Positions 1,150 through 64,000 of a stretch of 64,000 nt of DNA are shown one piece after another. The notes beneath the pieces were generated by a model. The model searched no databases, had not been told where the DNA came from, and saw nothing but the letters and a program-made list of their open reading frames with translations. The stretch spans positions 13,726 to 77,725 of the forward strand of contig JACPES010000003.1 in the NCBI GenBank assembly GCA_016183365.1, written 5' to 3'. Source of the stretch: Candidatus Collierbacteria bacterium (GTDB lineage Bacteria; Patescibacteriota; Microgenomatia; UBA1400; JACPES01). Position 1 is the stretch's first letter. The number at the start of each line of letters is the position of its first letter. The translations under genes were made by a program, and so were the position numbers.

Positions 1150-1406
1150 AAAACAGCCAGAGAAATTATAAAAATTCCGACCGCAAAAACCAATAACGCT
1201 AAGGCCACCAGCTTTAATCCTCCGGATATAGGCACGGTTAAAACCTGGCTCATCAACTGGACCTGCCTAACCACCACTAAAGAAAAAACTACAAACATTA
1301 AAAGTAGGGCCCATAAAAAAATTCTGACAATTGACAAGAGCCCAAAATCCACTAAATAATTCATATTATTGCTTTTATATCTTTCTAACCATTCTAACCA
1401 TCTCAA
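1146..1406 (-). CDS. Small membrane protein with two TM helices
   Basis: ORF-track protein with two hydrophobic helices. Its N-terminal 14 aa are encoded by a TTAACCA heptamer repeat, so the real start may be the internal Met (MNYLVDFG). Confidence 0.35.
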   Translation of the reverse strand: MRWLEWLERYKSNNMNYLVDFGLLSIVRIFLWALLLMFVVFSLVVVRQVQLMSQVLTVPISGGLKLVALALLVFAVGIFIISLAVL

Positions 1407-1421
1407 CCATTTTAACCATTA

Positions 1422-2021
1422 TTACCTTACCCTTCCCTCTATGGCCTCCTGTTCTTCTTGCGCTATCAACTCCGACAAAACCTTAACCACCTTTTCCGGA
1501 TTGGGAACTTTGTTAAAAACGAATTCCGGAATTTCAGCCGCGGTTTGAATCGAAACATCGCCAAAATTAAAAAACGCCCCCATGATGCCTTTTTGAAAAT
1601 AATTAACATCCTGAATTTTGTTTATTGCAGAAACTCCGACTTTTTTGAACAGCAGTCCATAAAAATCAACGTCTATCACCCGTTCGTCGGTGACAATATT
1701 GACCGAGAAAAACCACATCAAAAACCTCTCGAAAATAAAAGTTAAGATCAGGGCGTACCAAAACAGAGTTAAAATGAACAGGTAATTTTCCGGCAATAAA
1801 GAAATTACCGGTATATACGGCCAAACCAAAGGCGCAAACCCCATCGCCAAGGATATCAATATCCACCAAATGTTGGTCACAAAATGCGGCCGCAACAGTA
1901 ATATTATCCTTTCTTCTTCGTCCTGGGTTTCAAACTTGGTAGCTTTGGGGAAAACCGCCAAGGCGGAAAACAGGCCTCCGGAGCCATGATCTGTTAATAA
2001 CTGCTTAACTGACTCGAGCAT
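1422..2021 (-). CDS. Membrane protein with a bacterial PH (YdbS/YdbT-like, bPH_2) domain
   Basis: Two TM helices followed by a PH-like fold region (VNIVTDERVIDVDFYGLLFKKVGVSAINKIQDV). The architecture matches the YdbS/YdbT family; paralog-like to 22337..22960. Confidence 0.45.
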   Translation of the reverse strand: MLESVKQLLTDHGSGGLFSALAVFPKATKFETQDEEERIILLLRPHFVTNIWWILISLAMGFAPLVWPYIPVISLLPENYLFILTLFWYALILTFIFERFLMWFFSVNIVTDERVIDVDFYGLLFKKVGVSAINKIQDVNYFQKGIMGAFFNFGDVSIQTAAEIPEFVFNKVPNPEKVVKVLSELIAQEEQEAIEGRVR

Positions 2022-2167
2022 GTATTTATCTTATCACTATTTTATTTTTCGGACGAGCCCAGATTTTTCTTGACAGAAAAATCTGCAGGTACGCCCGAAC
2101 CCCGTACCGACGCTCTTCGCGAGCGCTCCCGCTCAGCGGGACGGCGCGAAGCAAGTCTGGTATGGGG

Positions 2168-3961
2168 CTACTTTTTTTCAATATTAAACAATCCGCTCTT
2201 TAAGGCGATTCTGCCCGGGGCCCGTAAATTGAAAGCTTTCTTAAATTCAGATCCGGCAATAGCCACTGATCCTTTATCAGTGTCAAATGTAACACTGGAA
2301 GTTATCCCGTTGTCGGAATAAGTTACCGAAATGCCGTTGACTTTCCCAAATCCCCCGCCGGCGCTTTCCGAGCGCGATTTTAACTCGCCGATAGAATATG
2401 GACTGCCGCCCCAGCAGGGTCCGGCAGGAGTAATCCTGTCGTCACCTTGACCGGATTTCACCAATACCGCCCAAGCGTTTAAAATATCGGCCATTTCCTC
2501 GGAAGTCAACCACGGATGCGACCGGCCGCAGCCATCGCCGGAGCGGCTTCGGTACCAGCCTTTGTAAAACCACGGACTGGCGGCGATTTTTTCATAAGCT
2601 TCTCCGGTCCAACCGCCCCGGCCGGATTTGGTGTCCCAAAACCCGGGGGTCGAATAACCATTGGAGCTATACGATTCCTGATATCCGCCGGAGGTCGAAG
2701 CGTACCAGGCGGAAAACGGCTGGCCGTTGGCAATTAAAACCCAGCCGCTGGTAGCATTGACGGCTTCTTCCCATTTACCGCCTTTATTGGCAGGCTTATA
2801 AACCTGGCACTGCTCGGTAGCGCAAATACTGCCGCTGCCATTGTTGGTATAAGCCAGAGCGTAAGATCGGGCGGCCACCGCCTGGGCTTTCAAAGCCTCC
2901 ATTCCGCCTTCGTCGCCCCAGCTTCCCGGCATTTCATAAATTCTTTTGGCATAGGTCTCTAAATCCACCGATCCGTATCCCCGAACATTAATATTTATGC
3001 CGGTGGAATAATCTTTTTTAATCTCAATTCCCCCGCCGTAATAAGCCTTTAAAATATCTTCGGCCGATTGGCCGTTTTTGGCCCGGCCAAAAGCCCCGTA
3101 CTGGCTCATCCCCTTAAAATGCGGGGCTCCGAATGAAAAAGCGGCGAAAGCCGGAGAAAATCCCGGATTATAATCCGGCCTAGAGGCGGGGTCGTCGGCC
3201 AGGGGCACATCGCCGACAGTAGTCTGAAAAGTTTCCGCTTTTTCGGTTAAAATCGCTTTTTGTCTGGCCGAAAGATCGGCAATTTTACCTGACAATTGGG
3301 CCTGATATTCCTTGGCTCCCTTAATTTCTTTTCTGAAAAAGGCCGCTTCCGTATCCAATTGGGTTTGAAGTTTGGCTAATTGGGTTTTTCTTTCCAGTTG
3401 CTTTTTTTGCTCAATTTCCAATCCTCTTGACTCTTCAGAGATACGGACGATAATTTCCCGGTCTTGGGCGGCGGCGGCCTGGCGGTAGCCCAATTCCCGG
3501 GTTAAATCCGCGGCAGACGAAGACCCCACCAACAATAAAAATGGGCTCATTGATTGTTGGCGTTTATATAAATTTCTGACCCTGATGGATAATAATTGAT
3601 ATTGAACCGCCATTTCAGTTTGTTTGGAATCCAATTCTTTGGCCAGACGTTTATTTTCCGCCACCGCCGCATTAATTCCTTTTTGGGCCGAAACAATTCT
3701 GGCGTCTAATTTTGATACTTCGGCTTCCAACGGGACTGTCGCCGATTCAGACAATTGCCGCAAATGGGATAAATCGTCAATCTGTGCCTGCAAATCGCCT
3801 AGCTCTGTCGCCGAGACGCCGCCATTATTGATAATAGATAAATAGACAAATAGACCCAAAAGTACACTTGCTGCGATTCGTGGTTTACATCCACGTAATC
3901 GTAGGGCGTGACTTCTGGGCGGGCAAATAGACAAATAGACAAATGCCAGAATTTTTCTCAC
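2168..3961 (-). CDS. SpoIID/LytB-domain protein with an N-terminal coiled coil
   Basis: Carries the motifs MSQYGAFGRA, EMPGSWG, EALKAQAVAARSYAL and CATEQCQVY typical of the SpoIID/LytB amidase-enhancer domain. A long Ala/Gln/Leu-rich coiled coil precedes it. The start is uncertain because two AGACAAATAGAC repeat copies and a hairpin lie at 3885-3915. Confidence 0.75.
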   Translation of the reverse strand: MRKILAFVYLSICPPRSHALRLRGCKPRIAASVLLGLFVYLSIINNGGVSATELGDLQAQIDDLSHLRQLSESATVPLEAEVSKLDARIVSAQKGINAAVAENKRLAKELDSKQTEMAVQYQLLSIRVRNLYKRQQSMSPFLLLVGSSSAADLTRELGYRQAAAAQDREIIVRISEESRGLEIEQKKQLERKTQLAKLQTQLDTEAAFFRKEIKGAKEYQAQLSGKIADLSARQKAILTEKAETFQTTVGDVPLADDPASRPDYNPGFSPAFAAFSFGAPHFKGMSQYGAFGRAKNGQSAEDILKAYYGGGIEIKKDYSTGININVRGYGSVDLETYAKRIYEMPGSWGDEGGMEALKAQAVAARSYALAYTNNGSGSICATEQCQVYKPANKGGKWEEAVNATSGWVLIANGQPFSAWYASTSGGYQESYSSNGYSTPGFWDTKSGRGGWTGEAYEKIAASPWFYKGWYRSRSGDGCGRSHPWLTSEEMADILNAWAVLVKSGQGDDRITPAGPCWGGSPYSIGELKSRSESAGGGFGKVNGISVTYSDNGITSSVTFDTDKGSVAIAGSEFKKAFNLRAPGRIALKSGLFNIEKK

Positions 3962-5388: not shown

Positions 5389-5721
5389 ATGTTTATATCA
5401 CTAAGCGTGCTAGGTGTAGCTTTACCCGGAGGGGAAAGAGACCTTTTTTGGAGCGATCCGCTAGCGGGAAGGGGGAAGTTTGATGACATTGGAACGACTA
5501 TTACTTCTCTTCTCCCCTACCTTTTCATCATCGGCGGAATCGTGACGGGCGGAATGCTGATAATCGGCGGATTCGACATTTTAACTTCCATGGGCAGCGA
5601 AGAAAAACTAAAAAGCGGAGCGGAGAGAATCAAAAACGCCTTAATAGGGTTTTTATTGTTGTTCGCGGTTTATTGGCTGGCCCAAATCGCTCAAGTCCTT
5701 TTTAAAATACCTATTTTATAG
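5389..5721 (+). CDS. VirB2/TrbC-like pilin paralog 2
   Basis: Two hydrophobic helices separated by a GG..SMGSEEKLKSGAERIKNALIG loop, the same pattern as the other seven paralogs. Confidence 0.5.
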   Translation: MFISLSVLGVALPGGERDLFWSDPLAGRGKFDDIGTTITSLLPYLFIIGGIVTGGMLIIGGFDILTSMGSEEKLKSGAERIKNALIGFLLLFAVYWLAQIAQVLFKIPIL

Positions 5722-5761
5722 GGCCAAGGGACAAAGGCTAAGGGCTAAAGGCAGACAAAAA

Positions 5762-6121
5762 ATGCAAACAAAAAACAACCAGAGAACTGATTTACATGAA
5801 AGAATTTTTCGTTGGATAATTTCAGTTCTTAAACTATTAAAGACTGTCAATAAAGATGTCATCAGCATAGTAATAATTCAACAGTTGGCAAAATCATGTA
5901 CTTCTGTCGGAGCAAATGACCAGGAAGCAGTTACTTCTTCTAGCGACAAAGACTTTGTTTCTAAATATCAAATTGTAAAAAAGGAGCTTTCCGAAAGTAT
6001 TTATTGGCTAAGAATACTTAAAGAGATGTATCCTGACATTGACATTTCAAGCCAGTTAAACGAAAGCATTGAACTTCTTAGAATCATTAGTAAAATCATT
6101 CTCAACGTCAAGAATCGTTAA
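5762..6121 (+). CDS. Four-helix-bundle protein (23S rRNA intervening-sequence protein family)
   Basis: Signature SCTSVGANDQEAV.SSS.KDF..K..IVKKELSESIYWLRIL. The gene is flanked by the inverted repeats GGCTAAGGGCTAAAGG (5739-5754) and CCTTAGCCCTTAGCC (6173-6190). Confidence 0.6.
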   Translation: MQTKNNQRTDLHERIFRWIISVLKLLKTVNKDVISIVIIQQLAKSCTSVGANDQEAVTSSSDKDFVSKYQIVKKELSESIYWLRILKEMYPDIDISSQLNESIELLRIISKIILNVKNR

Positions 6122-6123
6122 GT

Positions 6124-6900
6124 TTGGTAAAATCTTTTCTAGAAATGAAAAAATCGTTTTCCCTTAGCCCTCATCCCTTAGCCCTTAGCCCTTTTCTCCC
6201 CCGGCACATCGCCATCATCATGGACGGCAACCGGAGATGGGCTAAAGCCCGCGGCCTGGCCGCCGTTATGGGCCATGACAAGGCGGCCCGCGACGTCATT
6301 GAGCCGATTGTTGATAGGGCGATCCAATTGGGAATAAAGTTTTTAACCTTTTGGGCTTTTTCCACCGAAAACTGGAAACGGGATAAAGCCGAAATCAGAG
6401 CATTAATGGGGATTTTCCGGGAAGGATTAGATAAATTGGGCGGTAAACTCAACGAAAAAGGCGTTCGTTTGAACGTCATTGGTGAAATGGAAAAATTCCC
6501 TGCAGATATCCAAGAAAAAACCAAGAAGTATATGGAGCTAAGCCGTGACAATATCCAAATCTCCGTCAGCTTCGCCCTGAACTATGGAGGAAGAGACGAA
6601 ATCCTGCGAGCCGTAAGACGGCTCTTCGAAAAAATTCGAAATTCGAAATTCGAAATTCGAAATTTAAACGAAGAAATGTTTGCGAAATTTCTTGACACCG
6701 CGGATATGCCGGACCCGGATTTGATCATTAGAACCGGCGGCGATCTGCGGTTATCCGGCTATTTTCCCTGGCAATCGGTATACTCGGAGTTATATTTCAC
6801 CAAAACCCTGTGGCCGGATTTCACCCCGAAGGAACTGGATAAAGCATTGGAAGATTACGAAAAACGAGAACGGCGATTCGGTGGCGGAGGGAGAAAATAA
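6124..6900 (+). CDS. uppS: Undecaprenyl diphosphate synthase
   Basis: Motif HIAIIMDGNRRWAKARGL and the usual UPP synthase core are present. The likely start is the ATG at 6145. The N-terminal extension is encoded by the CCCTTAGCC repeat, and an in-frame GAAATTC x4 repeat encodes KIRNSKFEIRNL. Confidence 0.85.
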   Translation: MVKSFLEMKKSFSLSPHPLALSPFLPRHIAIIMDGNRRWAKARGLAAVMGHDKAARDVIEPIVDRAIQLGIKFLTFWAFSTENWKRDKAEIRALMGIFREGLDKLGGKLNEKGVRLNVIGEMEKFPADIQEKTKKYMELSRDNIQISVSFALNYGGRDEILRAVRRLFEKIRNSKFEIRNLNEEMFAKFLDTADMPDPDLIIRTGGDLRLSGYFPWQSVYSELYFTKTLWPDFTPKELDKALEDYEKRERRFGGGGRK

Positions 6901-6902
6901 AA

Positions 6903-6985
6903 AAAATTGCTAAATTGTTATATTGTTAAATTGGAATACGCACCAATTAGTCCTGCAAAGCAGGATCTGGCTCTGCCAGACAATC
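6903..6985. repeat. About 80-nt hairpin repeat element, copy 1
   Basis: ATTGCTAAATTGTTATATTGTTAAATTGGAATACGCACCAATTAGTCCTGCAAAGCAGGATCTGGCTCTGCCAGACAATCCAGCAAT, containing a TCCTGC...GCAGGA stem-loop, followed by a CAATCTA heptamer array. Confidence 0.5.
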
Positions 6986-7030
6986 CAGCAATCCAACAAT
7001 CTAGCAATCTAGCAATCTGACAATCTAACA
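6981..7030. repeat. CAATCYA heptamer array running into the start codon of pilin gene 3
   Basis: CAATCCAGCAATCCAACAATCTAGCAATCTAGCAATCTGACAATCTAACAATG. Confidence 0.65.
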
Positions 7031-7360
7031 ATGTATTTATTCACAGTCAACATCGGCCAAGATTTAAAACTCCAGGACGATACTCCAATTGGCGACGTCA
7101 TCCAATTCCAAAGCGTCGGAGCCTTGATTTCCGCCTGGCTGCCAAATATTTATATTTTAGGCGGGATTATCGTCTTGATTCTAATCATTGTTTCCGGGTT
7201 TATGTGGATTACCAATGCCGGAAATATTAAAAAAATTGAAGAGTCTCAAAAGATCCTGACCTTTGCTATAATGGGTTTTATATTTTTGTTCGGGAGTTAT
7301 TGGATTATTCAAATAATTCAAGTCCTGACGGGAATACCGATATTGAATTCAAGTTTATGA
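7031..7360 (+). CDS. VirB2/TrbC-like pilin paralog 3
   Basis: Hydrophobic helix (ISAWLPNIYILGGIIVLILIIVSG), then FMWITNAGNIKKIEESQKILTFAIMGFIFLFGSYW. Confidence 0.5.
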   Translation: MYLFTVNIGQDLKLQDDTPIGDVIQFQSVGALISAWLPNIYILGGIIVLILIIVSGFMWITNAGNIKKIEESQKILTFAIMGFIFLFGSYWIIQIIQVLTGIPILNSSL

Positions 7361-7830
7361 AAATACTGAATGAAAAATACCGAATACTGAATAAAAAAAA
7401 GGGCGCATCTGACTTCCCTTATTCAGTATTCAGTATTCAGAATTCAGCATTCGTTTCTCTTGGCATCTTTGGCACCATTAAAAATCCTCTCGGCGATACT
7501 TTTGATAAAGCCGGAGGATACGCATCGGTTGAGGGCGGATTGGGGTTATTACTCACCAATCTCATCCGCTTAACTACCGTCGGCGCCGGCATTTGGTTTT
7601 TGGTCAATTTGATTACTGCCGGGGTGATGTATATCGGCTCCAACGGCGAAACCGAAAAAATCACTATAGCTTGGGCTAAAATTTGGCAATCGTTGATCGG
7701 CCTTTTGATAATCGTTAGTTCTTTGACCCTGGCAGCTATTATCAGTAAAGTATTTTTCGGTAGCTACTCCACCATTCTTAATCCGGTAATCTATGGTCCG
7801 GGCAATGCCGGAGGAGGAAAAATTCCATGA
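7357..7830 (+). CDS. VirB2/TrbC-like pilin paralog 4
   Basis: Starts at the ATG at 7357 (the ORF-track start at 7300 overlaps the previous gene). Core is GAGIWFLVNLITAGVMYIGSNGETEKITIAWAKIWQSLIGLLIIV. A TATTCAG heptamer repeat sits in the N-terminal region. Confidence 0.45.
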   Translation: MKILNEKYRILNKKKGASDFPYSVFSIQNSAFVSLGIFGTIKNPLGDTFDKAGGYASVEGGLGLLLTNLIRLTTVGAGIWFLVNLITAGVMYIGSNGETEKITIAWAKIWQSLIGLLIIVSSLTLAAIISKVFFGSYSTILNPVIYGPGNAGGGKIP

Positions 7831-8219: not shown

Positions 8220-8617
8220 AACGAATCTTTTATTTATCTATTTGCCTATTTGTCTATTTGTCTATTCTGTCTGCCTCTGCCTATGCCGCCGGCATCACCA
8301 ATCCGGCTCTTGCGGACGATCTGGGGAGGGGGGATCCGGCGAATGTTTTTGGCCGGTTCGTGGGAAGCTGGTGGGGATTGGCGTATGTCATCGGCGGATT
8401 GCTGTTTTTGCTTTACCTGGTGTGGGGCGGAGTGGAATGGATCATGGGCGGTGGCAATAAAGACCGGATCGAAAGCGCCAAAAATAAAATTTCCAACGGT
8501 ATTTTAGGGCTGACCCTGCTGGCTGCGTCGTTCGCGTTGGTAAAGGCAATTGGATTTGTGTTGGGAATTGATTTATTGGAAACTTTGACTTTTGATTTAT
8601 CCAGACTGGCGCCGTAA
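8216..8617 (+). CDS. VirB2/TrbC-like pilin paralog 6
   Basis: Signal peptide MKRIFYLSICLFVYLSILSASAYA. Core is WWGLAYVIGGLLFLLYLVWGGVEWIMGGGNKDRIESAKNKISNGILGLTLLAASFALV. The signal peptide is partly encoded by a TCTATTTG repeat. Confidence 0.5.
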   Translation: MKRIFYLSICLFVYLSILSASAYAAGITNPALADDLGRGDPANVFGRFVGSWWGLAYVIGGLLFLLYLVWGGVEWIMGGGNKDRIESAKNKISNGILGLTLLAASFALVKAIGFVLGIDLLETLTFDLSRLAP

Positions 8618-9211: not shown

Positions 9212-9547
9212 ATGAGAGTGTGGGCAGTCGGATTAGTCACCAATGATGCTCCGAATTCTTTGGCCGATATTGAAACGGTAATTAAGAATTTATTGGGATC
9301 GGCTGCCAGCCTGATTGGGTTGGCTATTTTTGTGATGCTGGTGGTCGGAGCCTTTCAATACATTACTTCCGGAGCGGACCAAAAAGCTGTGGAAAAATCC
9401 CGACAAGTATTCACTTTTGCCTTGATGGGCGGAGCCGCGATCATAATTTTATGGCTGGTATTTGTTTTCCTGAAAGAATTCACCGGCATTGACTTACTGA
9501 AGTTTAATATTTGTATATTTCAAGATGAATTCTGCAAATTGCCGTGA
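9212..9547 (+). CDS. VirB2/TrbC-like pilin paralog 8
   Basis: ASLIGLAIFVMLVVGAFQYITSGADQKAVEKSRQVFTFALMGGAAIIILWLVFVF. Confidence 0.45.
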   Translation: MRVWAVGLVTNDAPNSLADIETVIKNLLGSAASLIGLAIFVMLVVGAFQYITSGADQKAVEKSRQVFTFALMGGAAIIILWLVFVFLKEFTGIDLLKFNICIFQDEFCKLP

Positions 9548-12408
9548 AAAAATTTACTATTTTGCCAATATTCATGCTTCTGCTCTTGAGTATAAGTTTA
9601 CAACCCACTCCGGCCGACGCTTTGGAAACCTGCGTTCCCCAGCAGATAAATCCCAACGAACCCCATGAATTCCGACCCAATCCCGGGCAAATCTGCACTC
9701 CCGAGATTCCGCAAGCAGCCCGCTTAACCTGCGGCACTGATCTGGTAGCCCAAAAAACCGTCAACGCGGCTCGGGGCGGGACTGGCTGCTCGCCGGCAAA
9801 TCCGACCGTCGGACAAACAGTTACCTGCACTAGGGATCTTAGTGTTGATGTGCCGATTTCCATCGGGCTGGCGGGATTGGAATTACCAATCGCCGGCGTG
9901 GCCAGCAACACCCAAGTCAGCGATACTTTAAACCCCGCCCAAAAAATGAGCCAGTACACCAGTTGGTATCTTCAAGGAGTCAAAGAGGATGGCACCAATG
10001 CCAAAGCCCTGGCCGACTACATGAACGGCATCATCAATAGCACCGGTGGCATCGGTAACCTGAAGCTCCTGTCGCCGGTTTTTAATATCCCCAGCTTCCA
10101 AACGCCCGGTCTGTTTGCCGCCATAGAAGCAGCCGGGGCAAAATTCAGTGAGCTGGATGCTTTCGCCGGCAACACCTACACCTTGGAAGGCCGCAAAGCT
10201 TATGACTGGTACGCCGATTTCCTGAAGGGAAAGGCGGATCAGTACGGCAAAAAAGTGATCTTCACCGAATTCGGTGATTTCGCCACCATCAACACCCAGC
10301 CAGACAACCGCCCGGATGTGGTCGCGACAATGAAGCAAGAGTTTGACCGGACGATGAGTGATGGCAATATTGAATCGGCGTTATATTTCAACGCGCTGGG
10401 AGATAATCCCGGCTTCGGTGGTTTTCGCCTGTCGCCGGATGAGCTGCGGGCGATTACTCAAGGCGCGCCTCGCCGAGCCGGGATTAACTCGGCCTCGCCG
10501 GTAAATGGCGGCGGCGGTTTTGCCACGCGCGTCGCCGACCTTGGTCTGGGTTGGACGCTGGAAATTGCCTACAACCCCAGCGATAAAGACGCTGTCGTCA
10601 GCGCGTTTAACACCGCAATTGCCCGCGGCCTGACACCGATCCTGCGAATCTGCGCCGGCGATGCCTGCGAATTCAGCGATCCGGCCGTCTATGCCCAATT
10701 CCTGCGCGACATTGCTCCCCGGATCAATGGCACCTTTTGGGCGATTGCCGGGCCGAACGAACCGGATATCGAAACTTGGGTAAGTGGAACTTCGAGCGTT
10801 CAGACCGACCAGTTCAGCTTCTTGGGTCCGATCAAAAAACTGGTTTCCGATACCGTCATCGACCAGAAAAAAACCGATCTGATCAATGCCGCAGTCGCCG
10901 GAACCGCGTATAACCAAATTATCGGCTACGTGTACCACAACGCCGTCATTCCTCGGCTGGAAGCAAAGAATTTGCTGCAGCAAAACCCCCGCCAGACTGA
11001 TATCCAGCGGATCCGCCTCACCGATATGGCCAATCATCTTAATCCGGCCTACATCGAAGGGGATCAAGAAGCCCTAAAGTGGTATATCCTCTGGCGCGAC
11101 ATGCCGTTTAGTCAAACCGTGGATCTGCCGGGTGAAATTTTCGCCACCACGTCGCTAGCCGATGCCAACGTCAAAAACGCCAGATTAACAATCACCTCGA
11201 CACTGGCGGACTTCCGGGTGGCCTTCCCCCATTTGGTGGAAGACGACCAAATGAGCCAATTGCTGCAAGCGGTGTTTCGGCCGCTGGGAGTGGCTGAAAC
11301 CAGCGGTTTTTCCGAACCGAATGCGGTGGATTATTCCACCGTCAATCGAGCCACACCGTTTAATACCAACTATTGCGATCTGCGGGAAACTTATAGCAAT
11401 CGCGGCGACAGCCTGGAAACCACCCGAACGATTACCGGCAACTTTAGCTTCACCAAAACCGTTACATATTCTTATACTCATGGAGAAAAAGACGCCAACG
11501 GCAAGCTCCTGACCACGATTGATGTAGATGTGTCGGGGCCGGTGTCGGTTTTCGCCCGCAATCCGCTGTCCATCGACAATATCTACGATCGATTAGTTGG
11601 CGGCCCATCAGCAATTTTTAAAGCCATTTTCCCCAACCCCGATCAAACCCTCGGTGGGATCAAGGACCTGCCGGCGGCAGCGCCGATCTCCATGAATTGC
11701 GGCTCCGGCTGCACGGTGAAACCCGGTAATCAAGAAGGGCGTAAAGCCGAGGTTTTCTTCGCCCACTGGGGCAGCGTGCTGACTTACTTCCACGACAAGC
11801 TCCAAAAAGCCCTTGACCCGCTGGGACGCACTAGCGCAGGTCCGAATCCGCCAGGCGGCGGAGGCTTATCTTGCACTATGCCGATTACTTCCTGCGGCCC
11901 GGTCAATTGGAACCTCGGTCTCTTTGACACTTATTTCAACGCTTACAATTCGGATAACAATAGCTCCTGGAGTCTGATCAAAGAACCATGGGCGCAGCAG
12001 CTGATCGGCCAAACCGCCGGCTGGAGCTGTCCGCAGTTTGTCAGTACCTTGTGGCTTGAGGAATCCGGTGGATCGGCAATCGGGCAGTATGATTTGGGTT
12101 GCATTTATCACCTCGATGGACACAGGGCACTAACCAGTGATCATCGCGGCGGGCCGGCTGATTTTCCCACCTACACCGCCTTTAAAAATCACTATGAACC
12201 CATCCTCAAAGATCAGCTCGCTTGTCTGCGCTCGTATATCGAACCGATCGGTGAAGATTTTCAAACCTTCATGTGTCAGTACAGCGGAGAGACCGATGCC
12301 GATCCGACTAAGCCATTCCGCCAATGCGATACCTTTACTAACAATCCCAATTTCCCCGTCAACATGTGTAAAATCGGCGGCGAAGTGGGAATTGCCACCC
12401 CAAACTAG
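9544..12408 (+). CDS. Large secreted protein (954 aa) with glycoside-hydrolase-like motifs and a Cys-rich C-terminal domain
   Basis: Signal peptide MKKFTILPIFMLLLLSISLQPTPADA. Motifs VIFTEFGDF and WAIAGPNEPD resemble TIM-barrel hydrolase catalytic motifs. Gly/Ala-rich codon use raises local GC. Confidence 0.45.
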   Translation: MKKFTILPIFMLLLLSISLQPTPADALETCVPQQINPNEPHEFRPNPGQICTPEIPQAARLTCGTDLVAQKTVNAARGGTGCSPANPTVGQTVTCTRDLSVDVPISIGLAGLELPIAGVASNTQVSDTLNPAQKMSQYTSWYLQGVKEDGTNAKALADYMNGIINSTGGIGNLKLLSPVFNIPSFQTPGLFAAIEAAGAKFSELDAFAGNTYTLEGRKAYDWYADFLKGKADQYGKKVIFTEFGDFATINTQPDNRPDVVATMKQEFDRTMSDGNIESALYFNALGDNPGFGGFRLSPDELRAITQGAPRRAGINSASPVNGGGGFATRVADLGLGWTLEIAYNPSDKDAVVSAFNTAIARGLTPILRICAGDACEFSDPAVYAQFLRDIAPRINGTFWAIAGPNEPDIETWVSGTSSVQTDQFSFLGPIKKLVSDTVIDQKKTDLINAAVAGTAYNQIIGYVYHNAVIPRLEAKNLLQQNPRQTDIQRIRLTDMANHLNPAYIEGDQEALKWYILWRDMPFSQTVDLPGEIFATTSLADANVKNARLTITSTLADFRVAFPHLVEDDQMSQLLQAVFRPLGVAETSGFSEPNAVDYSTVNRATPFNTNYCDLRETYSNRGDSLETTRTITGNFSFTKTVTYSYTHGEKDANGKLLTTIDVDVSGPVSVFARNPLSIDNIYDRLVGGPSAIFKAIFPNPDQTLGGIKDLPAAAPISMNCGSGCTVKPGNQEGRKAEVFFAHWGSVLTYFHDKLQKALDPLGRTSAGPNPPGGGGLSCTMPITSCGPVNWNLGLFDTYFNAYNSDNNSSWSLIKEPWAQQLIGQTAGWSCPQFVSTLWLEESGGSAIGQYDLGCIYHLDGHRALTSDHRGGPADFPTYTAFKNHYEPILKDQLACLRSYIEPIGEDFQTFMCQYSGETDADPTKPFRQCDTFTNNPNFPVNMCKIGGEVGIATPN

Positions 12409-12411
12409 TAA

Positions 12412-13992: not shown

Positions 13993-14047
13993 ATTAACTC
14001 ATCCCCCTCCACGACACCAGCAAACGATTTTTTATTCTCGTTTTGTA

Positions 14048-16420: not shown

Positions 16421-16424
16421 AGCG

Positions 16425-51300: not shown

Positions 51301-53520
51301 TTATTTCGGCCATTTGGATGCAATTAGCATCTGCTTCGGATATTTTCTGAAATCTTTTATCTCTTCCCAAATCGCTTCGGTCACGAAGGGGACAAACGGA
51401 TGTAGTAATTTTAAAAAAGTGATTAATCCATGAAAAATTGCCTTATCGCTAAGTTTACCGGTCTTATTTTTCTCTATTGCTTCATCGCAAAACCAATGCC
51501 AAAATTCGTTATACACCGTCTCCGCCGCCAGTCCCAGTCGGTAATTTTCTAAATTTTTGGTAACGCTGCCAATTACGGCATTAAGTTTATCGAGAAATTC
51601 CTGATCTCTGCTCTCTGATCTCTGTTCTCTGCTCATCACATATCGCGCAGCATTCCAAATTTTATTCGAGAAATTTCTCATCCCTCGCACCTTATCTTCC
51701 GAGAGGGGAATGGCGCTCCCCGGCGCTACGCCGTAGAGCAATGTCATTCGCAACGCATCCGCGCCGTATTTATCCACCAGCTCAATCGGATTAATTACGT
51801 TCCCTTTTGACTTGCTCATCTTTACCCCCTTAGCATCGGTCACCATTGACCACAGATAAACATCCCTAAACGGCACCTCTTTCTTCAAATAAAGCGAAAA
51901 TATGATCATCCGGGAAATCCAAAATGGCAGAATATCTGACAGCGTGCCGATCACGTCAGTGGGGAAGCGAGTTTTAAATTCATTTTGTTTAAGCGTCACC
52001 AACGGCCATTGTCCTGAAGAAAACCAAGTGTCAAAAGTGTCGGTTTCTTGAAGATAGTCCTCGCCCGGGGCGGAAACCGAAACAGTATATTTTATTCCAA
52101 CAGCTGCCCGCAACTCCTGTAAGCCGTTTTTAACTTCAACCAACGAATAATCTTTCAGCAATTCGCCAATTTTCCCCCTGATTAACTTTTTATTCTTATC
52201 AATGAATTTTACTTCAATATCGCCATTTTGTTTTTTGTTTTTTGTTTTTTGTTTTTTACCGATCTGGTACCACACCGGAATCCTGATTCCCCAGCAAATC
52301 TGCCGGCTAATTGGCCAGTCGTGCATCATCGTCAGCCAGGTCAGTATCTGCTTTTTAAATCTCGTCGGGTAAAACTTGATTTTATTTTCCCGCACTGCTT
52401 CCACCACCGGTTTTTTCAGCGACTCGACTTTGATAAACCAATTGGGAATTACCGTTGGCTCCAGAACCCGCTTGCACTTGTAACACAATCCGACCGAGTG
52501 TTTATAATTTTCATCTATTTTGACCATCAGCCCAGCCGCTTGAAGATCATCAGCTACCTTTTTTCTGGCTTCGGCGACTCGCAAACCTTGATAAATGCCG
52601 CATTTTTCATTGAGTTTCCCGTCCGGCCCAATCACTTGTTTGATTTCCAGCCCGTGACGCAGCCCCATTTGAAAATCATTTGGGTCATGAGCCGGCGTCA
52701 CCTTAACCACGCCGGTGCCGAATCTTGGATCTACCGTTTCATCGGCAATTACTTTTACTTTGAATTTTCCGATTAAGCCCTCAACTGTAATTTCCTGCCC
52801 AATATATTTTTTATATCGTTTATCTCTTGGATGAACCGCGACAGCCGTATCCCCAAATTTAGTCTCCGGTCTCACCGTCGCCAGGATAAATGGGCCGTAT
52901 TTAATGTAATAGAGCGGATCAACTCTTTCTTCGTGTACTACTTCCAATTCTGCCAGCGAAGTTCCGCAACGAGTACAGAAATTAACGATATAACTGTCTT
53001 TATAAATTAATCTTTCTTTCTCCATCCGGATAAAAGTTTCCCAAACCTGTTTCAAAACATGGTCATCTAAAGTAAAAACGCTCCGGCTCCAATCGGCGGA
53101 AAATCCCAGACGCTTAAATTGCTCATAGATCATCCCTGAATTGTCTTTAACGAATTGAAAAATATTTTGGTAAAGCGTTTGCCGGTCAAAATCCAGCCGC
53201 GACTTTCCTTGTTTTGCCAAATTTTTCTCGTACACAAATTGGGTCTCAAATCCGGCGTGGTCCATCCCCGGCAGCCAGACGGTCGAGTACCCCTGCATTC
53301 TTTTCCAGCGGATTAACACGTCGTCAACCGTATACATGGCGTGTCCGGCGTGAAGCGAGGCATTTGCGTTTGGCGGCGGCATCAAAATCGTAAAATTGCC
53401 CCTCTTGTCCTTCTGATCCTTCTCTCCGAATTCCGCCTTAAACGCCCCGCTCTCCTCCCATTTGCGGTAAATTTCTTTCTCAAACTTCTCCGGCTGATAA
53501 ACTTTATCCATAGCCATCAA
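51301..53520 (-). CDS. valS: Valine--tRNA ligase (compact, no C-terminal coiled coil)
   Basis: PPPNANASLHAGHAM (HIGH region), WLPGMDHAGFETQ and KMSKSKGNVI. The overall collinearity is with ValRS. An in-frame GTTTTTT repeat encodes KQKTKNKKQNG. Confidence 0.7.
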   Translation of the reverse strand: MMAMDKVYQPEKFEKEIYRKWEESGAFKAEFGEKDQKDKRGNFTILMPPPNANASLHAGHAMYTVDDVLIRWKRMQGYSTVWLPGMDHAGFETQFVYEKNLAKQGKSRLDFDRQTLYQNIFQFVKDNSGMIYEQFKRLGFSADWSRSVFTLDDHVLKQVWETFIRMEKERLIYKDSYIVNFCTRCGTSLAELEVVHEERVDPLYYIKYGPFILATVRPETKFGDTAVAVHPRDKRYKKYIGQEITVEGLIGKFKVKVIADETVDPRFGTGVVKVTPAHDPNDFQMGLRHGLEIKQVIGPDGKLNEKCGIYQGLRVAEARKKVADDLQAAGLMVKIDENYKHSVGLCYKCKRVLEPTVIPNWFIKVESLKKPVVEAVRENKIKFYPTRFKKQILTWLTMMHDWPISRQICWGIRIPVWYQIGKKQKTKNKKQNGDIEVKFIDKNKKLIRGKIGELLKDYSLVEVKNGLQELRAAVGIKYTVSVSAPGEDYLQETDTFDTWFSSGQWPLVTLKQNEFKTRFPTDVIGTLSDILPFWISRMIIFSLYLKKEVPFRDVYLWSMVTDAKGVKMSKSKGNVINPIELVDKYGADALRMTLLYGVAPGSAIPLSEDKVRGMRNFSNKIWNAARYVMSREQRSESRDQEFLDKLNAVIGSVTKNLENYRLGLAAETVYNEFWHWFCDEAIEKNKTGKLSDKAIFHGLITFLKLLHPFVPFVTEAIWEEIKDFRKYPKQMLIASKWPK

Positions 53521-53525: not shown

Positions 53526-53912
53526 TCAGAGCTTTCCCGCGGAGTGTTTCTTCAGCCAGGCGGCAATTTCGTCGACTGAAAGATTTTCATTGGCGACCTT
53601 AAGCATCCATTTAACGGCTTGATTTGTATTTGCAGAGATAAACACTCCATTTGCCAAAAGAAATGCTATTGTTCCGGAAAAAGCCGTTCTTTTATTTCCA
53701 TCGACAAAAGGATGATTTTTAACGATAGATTGAATAAAAGCTCCTGCCTTCATGAGAGTATCAGGATAAAGATCTTCTCCGCCAAACGTCGCGAACGGCC
53801 TCCCCACCGCCGACTCCAACATCCCCATATCGCGAGCACCGGAAGAGCCGCCGTATTTTTGAATCATCCGTTCATGGAGAATTAAAACCTGACGTACAGT
53901 AAAGACTTTCAC
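53526..53912 (-). CDS. doc: Doc (death-on-curing) Fic-family toxin
   Basis: Fic motif HPFVDGNKRTAF, about 128 aa. Overlaps the upstream antitoxin by 4 nt. Confidence 0.8.
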   Translation of the reverse strand: MKVFTVRQVLILHERMIQKYGGSSGARDMGMLESAVGRPFATFGGEDLYPDTLMKAGAFIQSIVKNHPFVDGNKRTAFSGTIAFLLANGVFISANTNQAVKWMLKVANENLSVDEIAAWLKKHSAGKL

Positions 53913-54172
53913 GGAAGCTTAGCCAATTTCTCTAGGGTTTCTCCATAGATTGACTCAATGCGGATAATCAGCCTAGAAAATTCTTCATCGGATATTCTCT
54001 GGTAATCAGTTGTATTTCCCTTCGACGTAGCATATTTTATTTCCCCGTTTACTGACTGAGAAAACGCTACCCCGCCGGCTTTGAGACGATGGCGCTTCAC
54101 AAAATCTTTTGGCAGCGTTACTGCCAAAGAATTTCCCACTTGAATAATTTTATGAGCAACTGGCGTAATCAT
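53909..54172 (-). CDS. AbrB/MazE/SpoVT-type antitoxin paired with Doc
   Basis: IQVGNSLAVTLPKDFVKRHRLKAG is a swapped-hairpin AbrB-type DNA-binding domain. Confidence 0.65.
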   Translation of the reverse strand: MITPVAHKIIQVGNSLAVTLPKDFVKRHRLKAGGVAFSQSVNGEIKYATSKGNTTDYQRISDEEFSRLIIRIESIYGETLEKLAKLP

Positions 54173-56930: not shown

Positions 56931-57878
56931 ATGACACGAATCGGAAGAAAAATCTTCTCTACCCTGCTATATCATTCTATTTTTGACTATCCTTTAACTA
57001 TTGATGAAATACACCACTATTTAATTTCCGAGAAAATTGTGCCGTTGTCAACGTTAAAAGAGGAAATTGGTGTTTTGCTAAAAGTTGGGAAAATTTTGTC
57101 AGGCGGCGAATTCTTTATTTCATCATCTATCATCCATTATCCATTATCCATCATTGTCCTCCGCCGCCACCGGAAGGATATAAGCCAAAAGAAACTGATG
57201 ATTGCGAAACGGGCATCAAGGGTCATTTCAATAATTCCGTGGGTCAAAATGATAGCCATTACCGGAGCTTTGGCGATGGAAAACGTCGACGAGAAAGACG
57301 ATATTGACCTTATGATTATTACCTCAAAAAATCGCCTATGGATTGTCCGCCCATTGGTTCTCTTGTTTGTCTCTCTTTTCTTCAAACGCCGTCATCCTTT
57401 GTCCAACGCTACAACTAACCACCAATCCGGCGGAGCCGGATCCCGCTCCGCGGGACAACTAATAACCCATAACAATGAAATTTGTGTAAATTTGTGGCTT
57501 GATGAATCTGCTCTGGTTATTCCCGAAGGCCAACGAAATCTTTACACTGCCCATGAATTGGCCCAAATGAAGCCGATTGTCAACAAAGAAAAAACATATG
57601 AAAAAATGCTTATTCGGAATAAATGGGGAGAAAAATTCTTAGCAAATTTTTGGTCAACAATTCAGCAATTTAACAATTTAACAATTAACAATCAGCAATT
57701 TGCTACTAACAACCCGTTGAACTTACTGAATCTATTTCTCTTTTGCCTCCAATTTACTTATATGAAAGCAAAGATGACCAACGAACGCGTCTCGCTTCAT
57801 GCCGCTTTCTTTCATCCGGGGAACAGGGCTGATACAATTCTTACCGCATATGACCGTCTTCGTCACCGGGATTTTTGA
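56931..57878 (+). CDS. Nucleotidyltransferase-fold (Pol-beta superfamily) protein
   Basis: ITGALAMENVDEKDDIDLMIIT is a GS...D.D-type NTase motif. Two heptamer repeats are in frame (SSSIIHYPLSII and QQFNNLTINNQQF). Confidence 0.4.
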   Translation: MTRIGRKIFSTLLYHSIFDYPLTIDEIHHYLISEKIVPLSTLKEEIGVLLKVGKILSGGEFFISSSIIHYPLSIIVLRRHRKDISQKKLMIAKRASRVISIIPWVKMIAITGALAMENVDEKDDIDLMIITSKNRLWIVRPLVLLFVSLFFKRRHPLSNATTNHQSGGAGSRSAGQLITHNNEICVNLWLDESALVIPEGQRNLYTAHELAQMKPIVNKEKTYEKMLIRNKWGEKFLANFWSTIQQFNNLTINNQQFATNNPLNLLNLFLFCLQFTYMKAKMTNERVSLHAAFFHPGNRADTILTAYDRLRHRDF

Positions 57879-58269
57879 TTTGTTGCACATCGAGCATCTG
57901 AATTTTTTGCGCGCCGCTAAGAAATTGGGAGGCAAACTGGTGGTGGGGATTGAATCTGATGCCAGAACAAAACAGTTGAAGGGGTCAAATCGGCCAATCA
58001 TGAATCAGGCTGAAAGAAAACAAATGCTGGAAGCCTTGGATTGCGTCGACGAAGTCATAGTTTTGCCCGATAAATTTAACTCCGATCAAGAATATGAGAA
58101 AATACTTTTGTCGGTTGGGGCGGATACTTACGCAGTATCGGAAAACAGTCCCTTTATGGAAAATAAAAAAAGAATTTGTCAGAGAGCCGGAGTTACGATT
58201 AAGGTTGTTAATCGGTATAATCCTGAATATTCGACTACTAAATTGATTGAAAAATTGTCATATTGTTAA
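57846..58269 (+). CDS. Cytidylyltransferase-like (HxGH) nucleotidyltransferase
   Basis: VFVTGIFDLLHIEHLNFL is an HxGH motif, as in RibL/TagD-like enzymes. The likely start is MTVFVTG; the ORF-track start at 57799 overlaps the previous gene. Confidence 0.55.
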
Positions 58270-58340
58270 ATTGTTAATTGAAATACACGCCAATTAGTCC
58301 TGCGAAGCATGATCTGGCCCCGCCAGACAATCTAGCAAAT
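58258..58340. repeat. About 80-nt hairpin repeat element, copy 2
   Basis: TATTGTTAAATTGTTAATTGAAATACACGCCAATTAGTCCTGCGAAGCATGATCTGGCCCCGCCAGACAATCTAGCAAAT, about 85% identical to copy 1. It lies immediately before the start of the YidC-like gene. Confidence 0.5.
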
Positions 58341-60142: not shown

Positions 60143-60215
60143 AATTTCAGATTTCAGAATTCATATTTTCTGAAAAAATCTGCAATCTGAAATATAAAAT
60201 CTGAAATAATTCAAT

Positions 60216-62330: not shown

Positions 62331-62343
62331 ACAAATAGATTAA

Positions 62344-62910
62344 TTACAGCTCTGGCAGAATCTGTTTTGGATTAAGGTATCCGGAATCATTTCTAACCTC
62401 AAAATGTAGATGCGGGCCGGTGGTCCAACCGGTCATACCGACGGTTCCCAAAACAGTTTCTTTGGTGACTGAATCGCCGACATTAACGTTAATCGTGTCC
62501 AGGTGGGCGTAAAGCGTCTGTAATTGGCCGGCATGTTCCACTACTACTTTGTTGCCATACCCAAACCTTTTGCGTTCGATTTCGACCACTTTACCTGTCG
62601 CTGCCGCTAAAATCGAAGTGCCGCGTTTGGCCCTGATATCTACTCCGGGGTGTTGATTACGGAATCCTTGGGAAAATCCGTTATCTTCAGCCACAGGAAT
62701 CCTAAAGGTGGTTTCAGTAATAACCTTGATCGCATTCGGGGTTAATGTGGCTATGTCGACGGTTTCGACCGGAACCTGTCCGCCGACTGGCCCCATTAAA
62801 TTGACCAGAATTATCGATAAAGCTAGATTCCCTCCGACTATTAACTTAATCTTTCGATTTTCAAAGATAGGTCGTAGCCGACGGGATAAAAAGTGACTTT
62901 TCCATAACAT
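62344..62910 (-). CDS. M23-family metallopeptidase, membrane-anchored
   Basis: HPGVDIRAKRGTSILAAATGKVV and GMTGWTTGPHLHFEV. Confidence 0.8.
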   Translation of the reverse strand: MLWKSHFLSRRLRPIFENRKIKLIVGGNLALSIILVNLMGPVGGQVPVETVDIATLTPNAIKVITETTFRIPVAEDNGFSQGFRNQHPGVDIRAKRGTSILAAATGKVVEIERKRFGYGNKVVVEHAGQLQTLYAHLDTINVNVGDSVTKETVLGTVGMTGWTTGPHLHFEVRNDSGYLNPKQILPEL

Positions 62911-63000
62911 AATTAGGCTTAATTTAGGCCCTATTAATAATTAACCTACGCTTGGTGGCGTAGGCTAATAGATACGTGTATGATATACCAAAAGGCCGAA

Positions 63001-64000
63001 AATGTCAAGAAAACCCGAAGGAGCTGGTTGGTTGAGAATGATAAGAGAGGTGGATGTCATGCATAAAAATGTGCTGGTCCGGTTGGATTTGGATGTGCCG
63101 TTAGAAAAACCAAAAATCAAAAATCAAAAATCAAAAATAACGGATGAGTCAAGACTAATAAATTCTTTGCAAACGATTCAGTATTTGGTTGATAGACAGG
63201 CAAAAATAACCATAATTGGACATTTGGGAAGGCCTCATGGCAAGAGGGTAGAAAGGTTAAGCTTACAGCCGGTAACTGACTGGTTTGAGATTAAGTTCCC
63301 CGGAGCGGGGATTAAGGTGGAAGAGAATTTGCGGTTTGATCCGAGAGAAGAAGCAAACTCCCCTACTTTTGCCCAAAATATTGTGCGACGTTTATCTCCG
63401 GACGTTTATGTCTTTGATGCTTTCGGATCTTACCGGCCCCACGCTTCGGTGATTTCAGTGCCTAAATTGGTGCCTACAGTGGCAATTGGATTTAGATTCG
63501 CGGCCGAAATATCGCATTTATCTAAAGTCCTGGAAAATCCGAAGAAACCGGTAATATTTATCATAGGCGGAGTCAAAGCTGATACTAAGATAAGCCTAAT
63601 TCCGAAGCTGGCGGAACGGGCCGATGAGGTGTTGGCAGGAGGGTTACTGGTAAGAAGAGTACAAGAAAGTATAAAAAAGTACAAGAAAGCCCAAGAAGGC
63701 TACGATTCTAAATTGCAAATTGCCGAATTGAGACCGGATGGGCTGGATATTACGGAAGAATCGGCCAGAATGTTTGCCGATAAAATTTTGTCAGCCGGAA
63801 CTGTGGTCTGGAATGGGCCGATGGGCAAGTTCGAGGACGGCAAACATTCAGTTGGGACAGAGATTATTGCTAGGGCGGTGAATGAAACCAAAGCTTATAC
63901 CGTGGTTGGCGGCGGAGACACAGAGACAGCCTTGACGGAGCTTGGATTGGAAAACGGGATCGATTGGATCTCCAGTGGCGGCGGGGCGATGCTTTATTAT
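63001..64000 (+). CDS. pgk: Phosphoglycerate kinase, 3' end beyond the window
   Basis: VLVRLDLDVPL, RFDPREEAN and the C-terminal AYTVVGGGDTETALTELG...ISSGGGAMLYY segment. An in-frame AAAAATC x4 repeat encodes KIKNQKSKI. The likely start is the internal MIREVD. Confidence 0.85.

Follow-up and report, generated by a model that had tools for sequence, protein, structure and literature searches.

What are tandem arrays of 7- and 8-nt units doing in the spacers of a Candidatus Collierbacteria (Patescibacteria) genome, and why are some of them found in frame inside essential genes? The question is raised by a stretch of 64,000 nt, referred to here as the window, whose UppS is 100% identical to a Candidatus Collierbacteria protein in a protein search and whose PF18895 pilins fit Patescibacteria (Pfam). 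A first-pass annotation had described such arrays in spacers and coding sequences, and its coordinates, units, peptides, and genes all proved correct. Here, we show that the arrays are a real, dispersed, and genome-specific family of 7- to 9-nt units, strongly enriched in spacers, and that inverted arrays are strongly associated, across phyla, with genes for four-helix-bundle proteins of family PF05635 (TIGR02436). The explanation that we favor, and consider probable, is a heptamer simple sequence repeat (SSR) family resembling the short tandemly repeated repetitive (STRR) sequences of cyanobacteria, made and homogenized by slippage and tied to cassettes that resemble the intervening sequences (IVSs) of 23S rRNA; otherwise, its arrays would be tolerated passengers.

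A dispersed family of short tandem arrays

Arrays were detected with Tandem Repeats Finder (TRF) and with an independent scan for at least three copies, compared with 20 dinucleotide-preserving shuffles. TRF found about 40 distinct arrays in the window, with periods of 7 to 10 nt and 2.6 to 9.8 copies. The scan yielded 14 arrays of period 7 against 0.15 in the shuffles and 7 of period 8 against 0.0, which bears out the tandem repeats as such; periods 5, 10, 11, and 12 showed no enrichment over the shuffles. Period-7 lengths do not decay monotonically but have a second mode at 31 to 34 nt, and the modal array has ~4.5 to 5 units. Head-to-tail units of 5 to 11 nt in arrays longer than expected by chance define the heptamer class of long SSRs, and the window arrays have this form. 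They also have the predominantly intergenic placement of that class, as 22 of the 40 lie in gaps that make up 12.7% of the window (~8-fold enrichment). The first-pass annotation overstated this by placing arrays in most intergenic regions, since only 13 of the 36 gaps of at least 40 nt, about one third, contain one.

The units are related to one another across the window. Common 6-mers were found in 218 pairs of arrays, compared with a mean of 36 and a maximum of 54 among composition-matched random arrays, and a TTTAAC[CA]A(T) superfamily takes in about half of the arrays. Units that had been called the same at distant positions are indeed related, although those at 6160 and 8240 are the reverse complements of those at 5722 and 3836.

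Distribution was assessed in 80 uppS loci from GTDB species. Arrays of period 7 or 8 were common only in a few Microgenomates (Chisholmbacteria L001 and loci L011, L019, L023, and L038) and in Candidatus Fervidibacter (L057), and they were essentially absent from Collierbacteria GWC2_44_18, from Woese-, Shapiro-, Pace-, and Gottesmanbacteria, and from ~50 Clostridia. Three syntenic relatives of the window from independent assemblies (L081, L082, and L083) match it in array richness. The dominant unit family differs from relative to relative, being AATACTG in L081 and GGGACGA in L057. This patchiness even within Microgenomates, together with the excess of 6-mer sharing, supports the earlier proposal of a lineage-specific repeat family.

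Inverted arrays around PF05635 genes

An inverted-repeat search of the window assigned about half of the arrays to inverted pairs, whose arms they form. For three spacers, predicted folds are hairpins with z scores of -5.3 to -6.6 against shuffles and with small GC hairpins in their loops, and the groES-groEL and yidD-yidC spacers are likewise built of inverted array pairs. Solo C/A-rich arrays beside start codons are, by prediction, wholly unstructured.

In each of the two pairs with ~400 nt between the arms, there is a PF05635/TIGR02436 four-helix-bundle gene, and we refer to these pairs as cassettes (Table 1). Their arms are 25 to 57 nt long and 70 to 88% complementary, and in predicted folds of both whole cassettes and of that of L081, the arms pair across the ORF in minimum free energy (MFE) and centroid structures alike. 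PDB relatives of the first gene product, 2RLD and 2GSC, are both deposited as five chains. The cassettes thus have two features of a 23S IVS, the ORF family and the terminal inverted repeats forming a long stem around it, but they are not inserted in a 23S rRNA helix, being placed between or partly inside protein-coding genes. We therefore regard them as IVS-like in working rather than as strict IVSs.

Comparison with the relatives shows that cassettes are present in some genomes and absent from others and that their arms differ. At the pilin-uppS locus, L081 carries a gene of this kind as well, with AATACTG in both arms where the window has CTAAGGG, meaning that the arms changed together. L082 lacks gene and arms there, and its UppS is without the N-terminal extension that the 3' arm encodes in the window and L081. 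At a second site, a cassette was seen in L083 alone among the four genomes. A miniature inverted-repeat transposable element (MITE) or DNA transposon would have terminal inverted repeats, a target-site duplication, and a cognate transposase in the genome; here, there are inverted arms and presence or absence at two sites among four relatives, no direct duplication was evident at the cassette junctions, and no transposase was found in the window. The cassettes may be, or may once have been, mobile. A diversity-generating retroelement would have an adjacent reverse transcriptase and a template-variable repeat pair; Pfam scans over the main window ORFs gave no match to the reverse transcriptase family RVT_1, the sole match of that type being an RNase H/RVT_3 domain at 43309 to 43752; template-variable repeat pairs were not specifically searched for.

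PF05635 genes are also array flanked in L081, L083, L011, and L057. The cassette of L057 (Candidatus Fervidibacter sinensis; gene at 11609 to 11983, arms GGGACGN) lies inside a 1757-codon A2M-like ORF (L057:10888-16161), which stays open across it, with the four-helix-bundle gene in another frame. Besides the arms, the same ORF contains heptamer arrays in frame at no fewer than five other places, ~340 to 540 nt apart and alternating in orientation. In the window, cassette 1 contains, 3' of the four-helix-bundle gene (6100 to 6147), both an extended -10-like box (TGGTAAAAT) and a new uppS start, ATG-AAA-AAA, and the counterpart of the box in L081 is TGCTACAAT (L081:9975-10003). Judging from these motifs, the cassette appears to donate a promoter and an N terminus to the essential uppS.

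The association holds well beyond the window. Eighty metagenome loci were retrieved with a two-sequence alignment of the IVS-encoded protein (IVP), and arrays of periods 7 to 9 were sought within 220 nt of each gene. Of the 79 PF05635 genes that could be tested, 31 were flanked by arrays at both ends, 31 had them at a single end, and 17 had none; the corresponding counts among 160 further long ORFs of these loci were 3, 30, and 127. An array at any end was thus seen at 62 of the 79 unrelated PF05635 genes and at 33 of the 160 control ORFs. Inverted arms were clearly above shuffles in 37 of 77 testable loci, 26 of which were best fit by period 7. A threshold-free autocorrelation gave peaks at lags of 7, 14, and 21 in the 150-nt flanks of PF05635 genes, and these peaks were absent inside the genes and 900 to 1200 nt away. 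Arm periods ranked as in the window (7, 80 arrays; 8, 33; 9, 4), the 5' arm was C-poor on the sense strand, and arm lengths were 19 to 48 nt without a sharp peak. Of 170 arrays more than 400 nt from the gene, 87 had 6-mers in common with the arms of the same locus, compared with 35 when the arms of another locus were used. Away from the gene, array density was 0.35/kb in these loci and 0.07/kb over all uppS loci.

For named organisms, we used tblastn against 72,556 plasmids and inspected 8 cases. Matches came almost only from heterocystous cyanobacteria and also from Riemerella, Azospirillum, and Gemmatirosa. Arrays flank the gene in Stanieria (CAGAGGG), Calothrix (TTAGCTG), Pseudanabaena (AAAAGCT), Riemerella (AACCTTG), and Gemmatirosa (CTCCTGC), while the two cases in Nostoc PCC 7120 have a downstream array only, with transposase genes nearby. 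On Pseudanabaena galeata plasmid pPg_01 (L168:398-2562), there are ~17 copies of AAAAGCT and ~10 of AAAAGCC, and the four-helix-bundle gene lies between cas6 and cas4 in a CRISPR-Cas locus. On Azospirillum lipoferum 4B plasmid AZO_p2 (L170:1457-1925), a four-helix-bundle ORF with GACRGAG arms lies within conserved 23S rRNA sequence. No gene is listed for this stretch, which is a 23S IVS of the classical type carried by a plasmid or chromid, and its heptamer arms resemble those known from Coxiella. The Coxiella 23S IVS, with its S23p ORF, ends in a 28-bp stem that is cut by RNase III and contains 3 to 4 GACAGAT heptamers, depending on the strain (PMC4990558).

Taken together, the link between PF05635 genes and inverted heptamer arms is seen in Cyanobacteria, Bacteroidota, Gemmatimonadota, Armatimonadota, and an Azospirillum 23S IVS, and we consider this association across phyla strong. 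A literature search found no paper generalizing it; the coverage of that search was incomplete, and an earlier description is possible, but a general coupling of four-helix-bundle genes and inverted heptamer arrays appears not to have been described before.

Arrays within coding sequences

Pfam scans of the ORFs confirmed the host genes named in the first-pass annotation, including uppS, the tsaC-tsaE fusion, tsaD, valS, pgk, the gene of a SpoIID-domain protein, and genes of type IV secretion system (T4SS)-type pilins. The array-encoded peptides are KIRNSKFEIRNL in UppS, STISNQQLTINNL in TsaD, KKQKTKNKKQN in ValS, and EKPKIKNQKSKI in Pgk, and FVYLSI is encoded by arrays in both the SpoIID and the pilin signal peptides. 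Coding arrays are located in loops, termini, and signal peptides, in line with the suggestion that they are tolerated there. Because unrelated proteins contain identical units translated in differing frames and from different strands, the repeats are a DNA-level phenomenon; selection on a shared peptide is ruled out by this and by orthologous sites that carry different units. A large secreted protein has a signal peptide encoded by a different T-rich array in each relative, namely TATTGGCT (L083:4074-4133), TTATTCGT (L081:13368-13405), and CTTTCTTGTA (L082:12976-13020), and its counterpart in the window has a signal peptide without an array. Signal peptides appear to be freely rebuilt from repeats.

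The UppS loop array is not specific to this lineage. Orthologues of 54 to 90% identity have heptad-periodic peptides at the same loop (IQHSTFNIQH, IQNSKFKIQN, and VQSSKFKVQS). In six genomes, whose UppS proteins are 54 to 84% identical, the array has 4.4 to 4.9 copies each, but its unit is ATTCGAA in the window, L083, and L011, GTTCAAC in L081, CGATTAA in L082, and GTTCAAA in L001. Between the window and L011, 40 of 42 nt of the array are identical, although the proteins are only 54% identical and most neighboring synonymous sites differ. The RnpA loop behaves alike, with the array site kept and the unit changing between relatives. Such near-perfect periodicity at a fixed site despite unit change indicates that the arrays are continuously homogenized and are not decaying relics.

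Not every coding array is an insertion, as had been proposed. Clostridial UppS has a nonrepetitive loop, VKNGKIDIEDINE, of exactly the same length as the array-coded one, so that in UppS the repeat re-codes a loop that is there anyway; the first TsaD array (49091 to 49115) likewise leaves the length unchanged relative to solved homologues. The second TsaD array (49269 to 49303) and one TsaC site, in contrast, add 9 to 10 and 8 amino acids (aa), respectively, and the earlier description of insertions in loops holds for these.

In rnpA, the sole frame-breaking case among ~18 coding arrays, the reading frame shifts exactly at AGGGACA x3.7, so that the gene lies in two frames. The window lacks a single unit here, and one more unit (or two fewer) would restore the frame, one added unit giving a protein of matching length. 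In relatives, RnpA is full length and has a heptad-periodic loop (RTKDEGRRTKE), encoded in frame, at the same place, whereas the public annotation (P0132) retains only the C-terminal 69 aa. If it is a real allele rather than a consensus error, rnpA is direct evidence of unit slippage, and it fits the expectation that copy-number change would toggle frames.

It does not follow that the arrays serve phase variation, the role that had been offered for them. One-unit gain or loss in a contingency locus shifts a frame or promoter spacing, as it would for the 7- and 8-nt units in ORFs and beside starts here, and the pilin signal-peptide array does have 5.1 copies in the window, 6.2 in L083, and 2.4 in L081. 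Such loci are concentrated in dispensable surface or host-interaction genes, however, and the window arrays are not; the expected enrichment in surface-protein genes was absent, with arrays in uppS, tsaD, tsaC-tsaE, valS, pgk, and rnpA instead. Because the hosts are essential single-copy genes and the UppS site keeps its copy number, phase variation is unlikely as a general role, although individual loci may conceivably vary in this way. Coordinates of these and the remaining features are given in Table 1.

TABLE 1 Arrays, cassettes, and array-bearing genes of the window
Position	Strand	Feature	Remark
1383-1420	.	TTCTAACCA x4.2 array, spacer between two minus-strand genes	TRF; TTTAAC[CA]A superfamily
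3833-3944	-	Two GACAAATA arrays (3833-3855, 3924-3944), N terminus of SpoIID-domain protein	FVYLSI encoded twice
5720-5752	+	Cassette 1, 5' arm, AGGGCYA x4.7	Begins directly after pilin stop codon
5762-6121	+	Cassette 1, four-helix-bundle gene 1	PF05635 23S_rRNA_IVP, E 4.7e-11; TIGR02436, E 4.7e-17
6161-6196	+	Cassette 1, 3' arm, CCCTTAG x4.7	Translated as UppS N-terminal extension SLSPHPLALSPF
6632-6664	+	GAAATTC x4.7, perfect, in frame	UppS loop (IRNSKFEIRN)
6904-7032	.	Inverted pair AAATTGTT x3.8 / ACAATCTA x6.6 around two small GC hairpins	MFE -38.5, z -5.7; second array runs into ATG at 7031
7362-7452	.	Inverted pair AATACYG / TATTCAG x4.7	z -5.3; TATTCAG arm encodes YSVFSIQNSAF in ORF 7300-7830
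8231-8272	+	TATTTGTC x5.1	Codes for T4SS-type pilin signal peptide
22287-22335	.	TTAACCT-type arm, inverted relative to 22975-23027	Both flank minus-strand ORF 22337-22960
22975-23072	+	Cassette 2, 5' arm, AAAAGGTT x9.8	
23048-23458	+	Cassette 2, four-helix-bundle gene 2	PF05635, E 3.7e-16; TIGR02436
23461-23566	+	Cassette 2, 3' arm region, TTTTTAACC x6.1	
34051-34147	.	Inverted pair ATTCTTGA / TTCAAGAAT around GC hairpin	MFE -40.2, z -6.6
37093-37130	.	AAGGTTAA x4.5, solo, between convergent genes	No predicted structure
40160-40237	+	AATGGCTAC x3.6 then TTTTAACCA x4.3, rpmH-rnpA spacer, partly complementary	z -3.0
40244-40575	+	rnpA	Frameshift at AGGGACA array (40339-40364)
40565-40595	+	TAACAATT x3.9 at rnpA stop / yidD start	TRF
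40821-40961	.	Inverted arrays AATTTAC / CAATTTT versus ATTGAAA, yidD-yidC spacer	z -2.4
47722-47758	+	ACAATYTA x4.6, unstructured leader abutting tsaC-tsaE start codon	MFE 0
48073-48645	+	tsaC-tsaE, three in-frame arrays (48073-48090, 48233-48250, 48618-48645)	
48861-48898	+	TTTAACCAT x4.2, tsaCE-tsaD spacer	No predicted structure
49091-49303	+	tsaD, two in-frame arrays (49091-49115, 49269-49303)	
51601-52257	-	valS, two in-frame arrays (51601-51631, 52226-52257)	
57121-57700	+	ORF 56931-57878, two in-frame arrays	Second (AACAATTT x6) inverted relative to 58252-58277
58252-58277	.	AAATTGTT x3.2, partner of 57656-57700	Pair flanks cytidylyltransferase-like ORF
60144-60207	.	Inverted pair ATTTCAG x3.6 / AAATCTG x4.6	Fills groES-groEL spacer
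63105-63697	+	pgk, two in-frame arrays (63105-63138, period 7; 63652-63697, period 10)	

The window spans the replication origin, since dnaN and dnaA (minus strand) diverge from rpmH-rnpA-yidD-yidC (plus strand) at 37189 to 41744 and the cumulative GC skew has its minimum at ~36 to 40 kb. Origin-proximal spacers are the densest in arrays (7 in 39932 to 40946); no switch of array strand at the origin (dnaA/dnaN, 37 to 40 kb) was seen in a check by eye only. Rfam (gathering score) and tRNA scans of all 64 kb gave no match despite the origin region, and no rRNA was found in the window. A Shine-Dalgarno-like motif precedes only ~10 of 60 window genes, and a TATAAT-like or extended -10 box lies 6 to 12 nt 5' of many starts (for example, 16425 to 17474, 21632, 46489, 53909 to 54172, and 6124). 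The closeness of these boxes to start codons suggests leaderless or very-short-leader mRNAs. That arrays stand in for Shine-Dalgarno sites is ruled out, as most genes lack such sites whether an array is present or not.

Large ORFs at 9544 to 27043 (954, 526, 790, 349, 371, 435, and 626 aa) have no Pfam match, are almost free of arrays, and have a somewhat higher G+C content (0.47 to 0.53). This run adjoins a T4SS-like cluster (PrgI and a TraG/VirB4-like ATPase at 32845 to 37092) and many PF18895 pilin paralogues. A single 366-aa ORF at 47757 to 48857, directly 5' of tsaD, encodes a fusion of TsaC (Sua5/YrdC domain) with TsaE. Several metagenome-assembled genomes titled "uncultured Pseudomonadales" or "Gammaproteobacteria" (binchicken co-assemblies L006, L008, L009, L011, L016, L019, L022 to L024, and others) have a UppS closest to Microgenomates and look mislabeled.

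Known systems and competing explanations

Among described repeats, the STRR heptamers of cyanobacteria, reportedly described by Mazel et al. in 1990 from Calothrix and Anabaena, resemble the window arrays in being dispersed arrays of genome-specific heptamers in spacers, and heterocystous taxa also dominate the PF05635 plasmid matches. The STRR1 to STRR3 units are CCCCAGT, TTGGTCA, and CAACAGT, however, whereas those of the window are TTAACCA, ACAATCT, CTAAGGG, GACAAATA, and others, and the phylum differs, so the arrays are not STRRs proper. We know of no description of STRRs as arms around four-helix-bundle genes, nor, to our knowledge, are heptamer arrays known to flank the genes of Avd, the accessory protein of diversity-generating retroelements (DGRs). 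Avd belongs to the same Pfam family, PF05635 (cf. PMC10053308). The 5- to 11-nt class of long SSRs (Mrazek, Guo, and Shah 2007, as relayed in PMC4679880 and PMC4692102) offers the likeness of over-long tandem 7-nt units, mostly intergenic and in many phyla, for which the same accounts give polymerase slippage as the proposed origin. The differences are that the host here has a small Patescibacteria genome rather than a large free-living one, that many arrays are in frame in essential genes, that array length has a mode at ~4.5 copies, and that there is a link to PF05635 cassettes.

Intergenic heptamer arrays, including inverted pairs, are also known from Xanthomonas (GGGAATC; 70 to 75 inverted pairs per genome) and Nostoc (GGGGAYT), where species share the position of each array and its type (single or pair) but differ in its length and sequence (Rehm et al. 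2015, PMC4692102). Those repeats are G-rich and discussed as G-quadruplexes, and no cargo gene is noted; the window units are mostly A/T-rich and cannot form G-quadruplexes, and some of their pairs enclose PF05635 genes. The TAACTGA repeats of Beggiatoaceae (MacGregor 2015, PMC4679880) have 2 to 6 heptamer copies, often a few bases 5' of starts and at essential genes too, in genomes in which Shine-Dalgarno sites are rare and a few copies lie in ORFs, at protein termini. One unit dominates there, as opposed to many units and in-frame arrays inside conserved enzymes here; TAACTGA is absent from the TRF table of the window, and only some arrays abut start codons, so the window arrays do not belong to that system. 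In the 23S IVSs of Leptospira, Coxiella, and Brucella (Warrier et al. 2016, PMC4990558), the long stem formed by terminal inverted repeats has in its loop an ORF of the family to which the cassette genes belong; the window cassettes lie outside rRNA, one between a pilin gene and uppS, with its 3' arm translated. The repeat class is thus of the heptamer long SSR/STRR type, in a new phylum and with unusual in-frame occupancy of essential genes.

On the explanation that we favor, slipped-strand mispairing would make the arrays and keep homogenizing them. Two inverted arrays would be the arms of a long stem, around either a PF05635/TIGR02436 gene or a short spacer (an "empty" pair), and in read-through transcripts the arms would pair into ~25 to 50 bp of double-stranded RNA, a stem which, by analogy, may be of the type cut by RNase III in 23S IVSs. 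Paired arrays would most likely be RNA processing, insulation, or stability elements, or they may simply be selfish, and arms built of repeats would keep pairing after a one-unit slip. Solo arrays would be dispersed members of the same unit family. In genes, arrays would survive only where ~7 to 14 in-frame residues are harmless, as passengers and not as switches, with a rare one-unit slip breaking a gene, as in rnpA. Several observations weigh against this account. Only 2 of ~40 arrays' worth of window sequence flanks PF05635 genes, and the cassette link may explain only a subset, most arrays being solo or empty pairs. The metagenome loci were chosen via PF05635, and their high array density could reflect shared host taxa; moreover, the array-rich loci L001, L019, L023, L038, and L082 show no PF05635 gene in the 10 to 20 kb covered. 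Slippage in frame-constrained arrays is limited to three-unit steps, which makes homogenization by simple slippage awkward. Also, with a putative -10 box of uppS inside cassette 1, the gene's own mRNA would hold only the 3' arm.

Alternatively, the arrays could be a pure mutational by-product of a replication or repair bias in this lineage that slips 7- to 8-nt units, with arrays building up at any site that tolerates them and PF05635 genes merely located in array-rich spacers. Such a bias would accord with the polymerase-footprint idea of Mrazek et al. 2007 and with heptamers being the most over-represented class of long SSRs in many prokaryotes (cited in PMC4679880 and PMC4692102), and the ~8-fold noncoding enrichment, the many different units, and the one-unit slip in rnpA are what it would produce. 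We nevertheless think it rather unlikely, as arrays stand on both sides of 39% of PF05635 genes compared with 1.9% of control ORFs in the same loci, the arms of a pair match each other as complements and change in step from one orthologous cassette to the next, units fall into dispersed families instead of growing from local seeds, and the length distribution has its second mode. A smaller chance attaches to the arrays being binding sites for a trans-acting protein (the pentameric four-helix-bundle protein, S1, or a CsrA-like protein), with one contact per unit, that regulates neighboring genes. Several arrays are unstructured C/A-rich leaders directly 5' of starts, recalling the proposal for Beggiatoaceae TAACTGA (PMC4679880), the unit vocabulary is genome specific and common to the IVP arms, and both the five-chain PDB deposits and the modal array of ~4.5 to 5 units are suggestive; but one genome holds many unrelated units, the broad arm lengths of the wider set have no sharp five-unit peak, and arrays occur on either strand relative to transcription, which makes this improbable. 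The narrower idea of one pentamer subunit per heptamer, hence five units, is kept as speculation only, the 31- to 34-nt mode being a feature of Collierbacteria-type loci and the arms of the wider set having no sharp peak.

Contingency loci, in which copy-number change switches genes or tunes promoters and leaders, are very improbable. Unit lengths that are not multiples of three, the rnpA frame that is off by exactly one unit, arrays that abut start codons or encode pilin and SpoIID signal peptides, the varying pilin array, and the strain-variable heptamer number in the Coxiella IVS (PMC4990558) would all suit them. Switching off the essential single-copy hosts would be lethal, however, copy number at the UppS site is steady across six genomes, and surface genes show no enrichment apart from signal peptides, in which any T-rich repeat is tolerated. 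An artefact of assembly or sequencing, a possibility that the first-pass annotation had itself raised for the assembly, has a negligible probability: a miscalled consensus within the repeat could account for the frameshift in rnpA, but arrays recur at orthologous sites in independent assemblies (NCBI, JGI, ENA, and Logan), they occur in plasmids of cyanobacterial isolates, and most coding arrays keep the reading frame.

A broader version of the slippage-and-cassette account is possible, and we put it forward tentatively. PF05635/TIGR02436 genes and inverted heptamer arrays might be one widespread mobile or self-propagating cassette, of which the 23S IVS is one insertion context, and the cassette or its pentameric protein might source or maintain genome-wide arrays in Cyanobacteria, Xanthomonas-like genomes, some Patescibacteria, and others.

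Heptamer arrays have been catalogued since 1990 and are the dominant class of long SSRs in many bacteria, and the S23p/four-helix-bundle family is large and structurally solved, with Avd as its DGR relative. What this analysis adds is that the two occur side by side in six or more phyla, that co-variation of the arms keeps cassettes complementary, and that in-frame arrays in essential enzymes persist despite unit turnover. These results make both the role of heptamer arrays and the function of S23p testable. For the annotation of candidate phyla, they are a reason to watch for array-borne frameshifts, as in rnpA, and for cassette-donated N-terminal extensions, as in UppS. If true, the single-cassette reading would explain the decades-old STRR puzzle as well as the function of the S23p protein.

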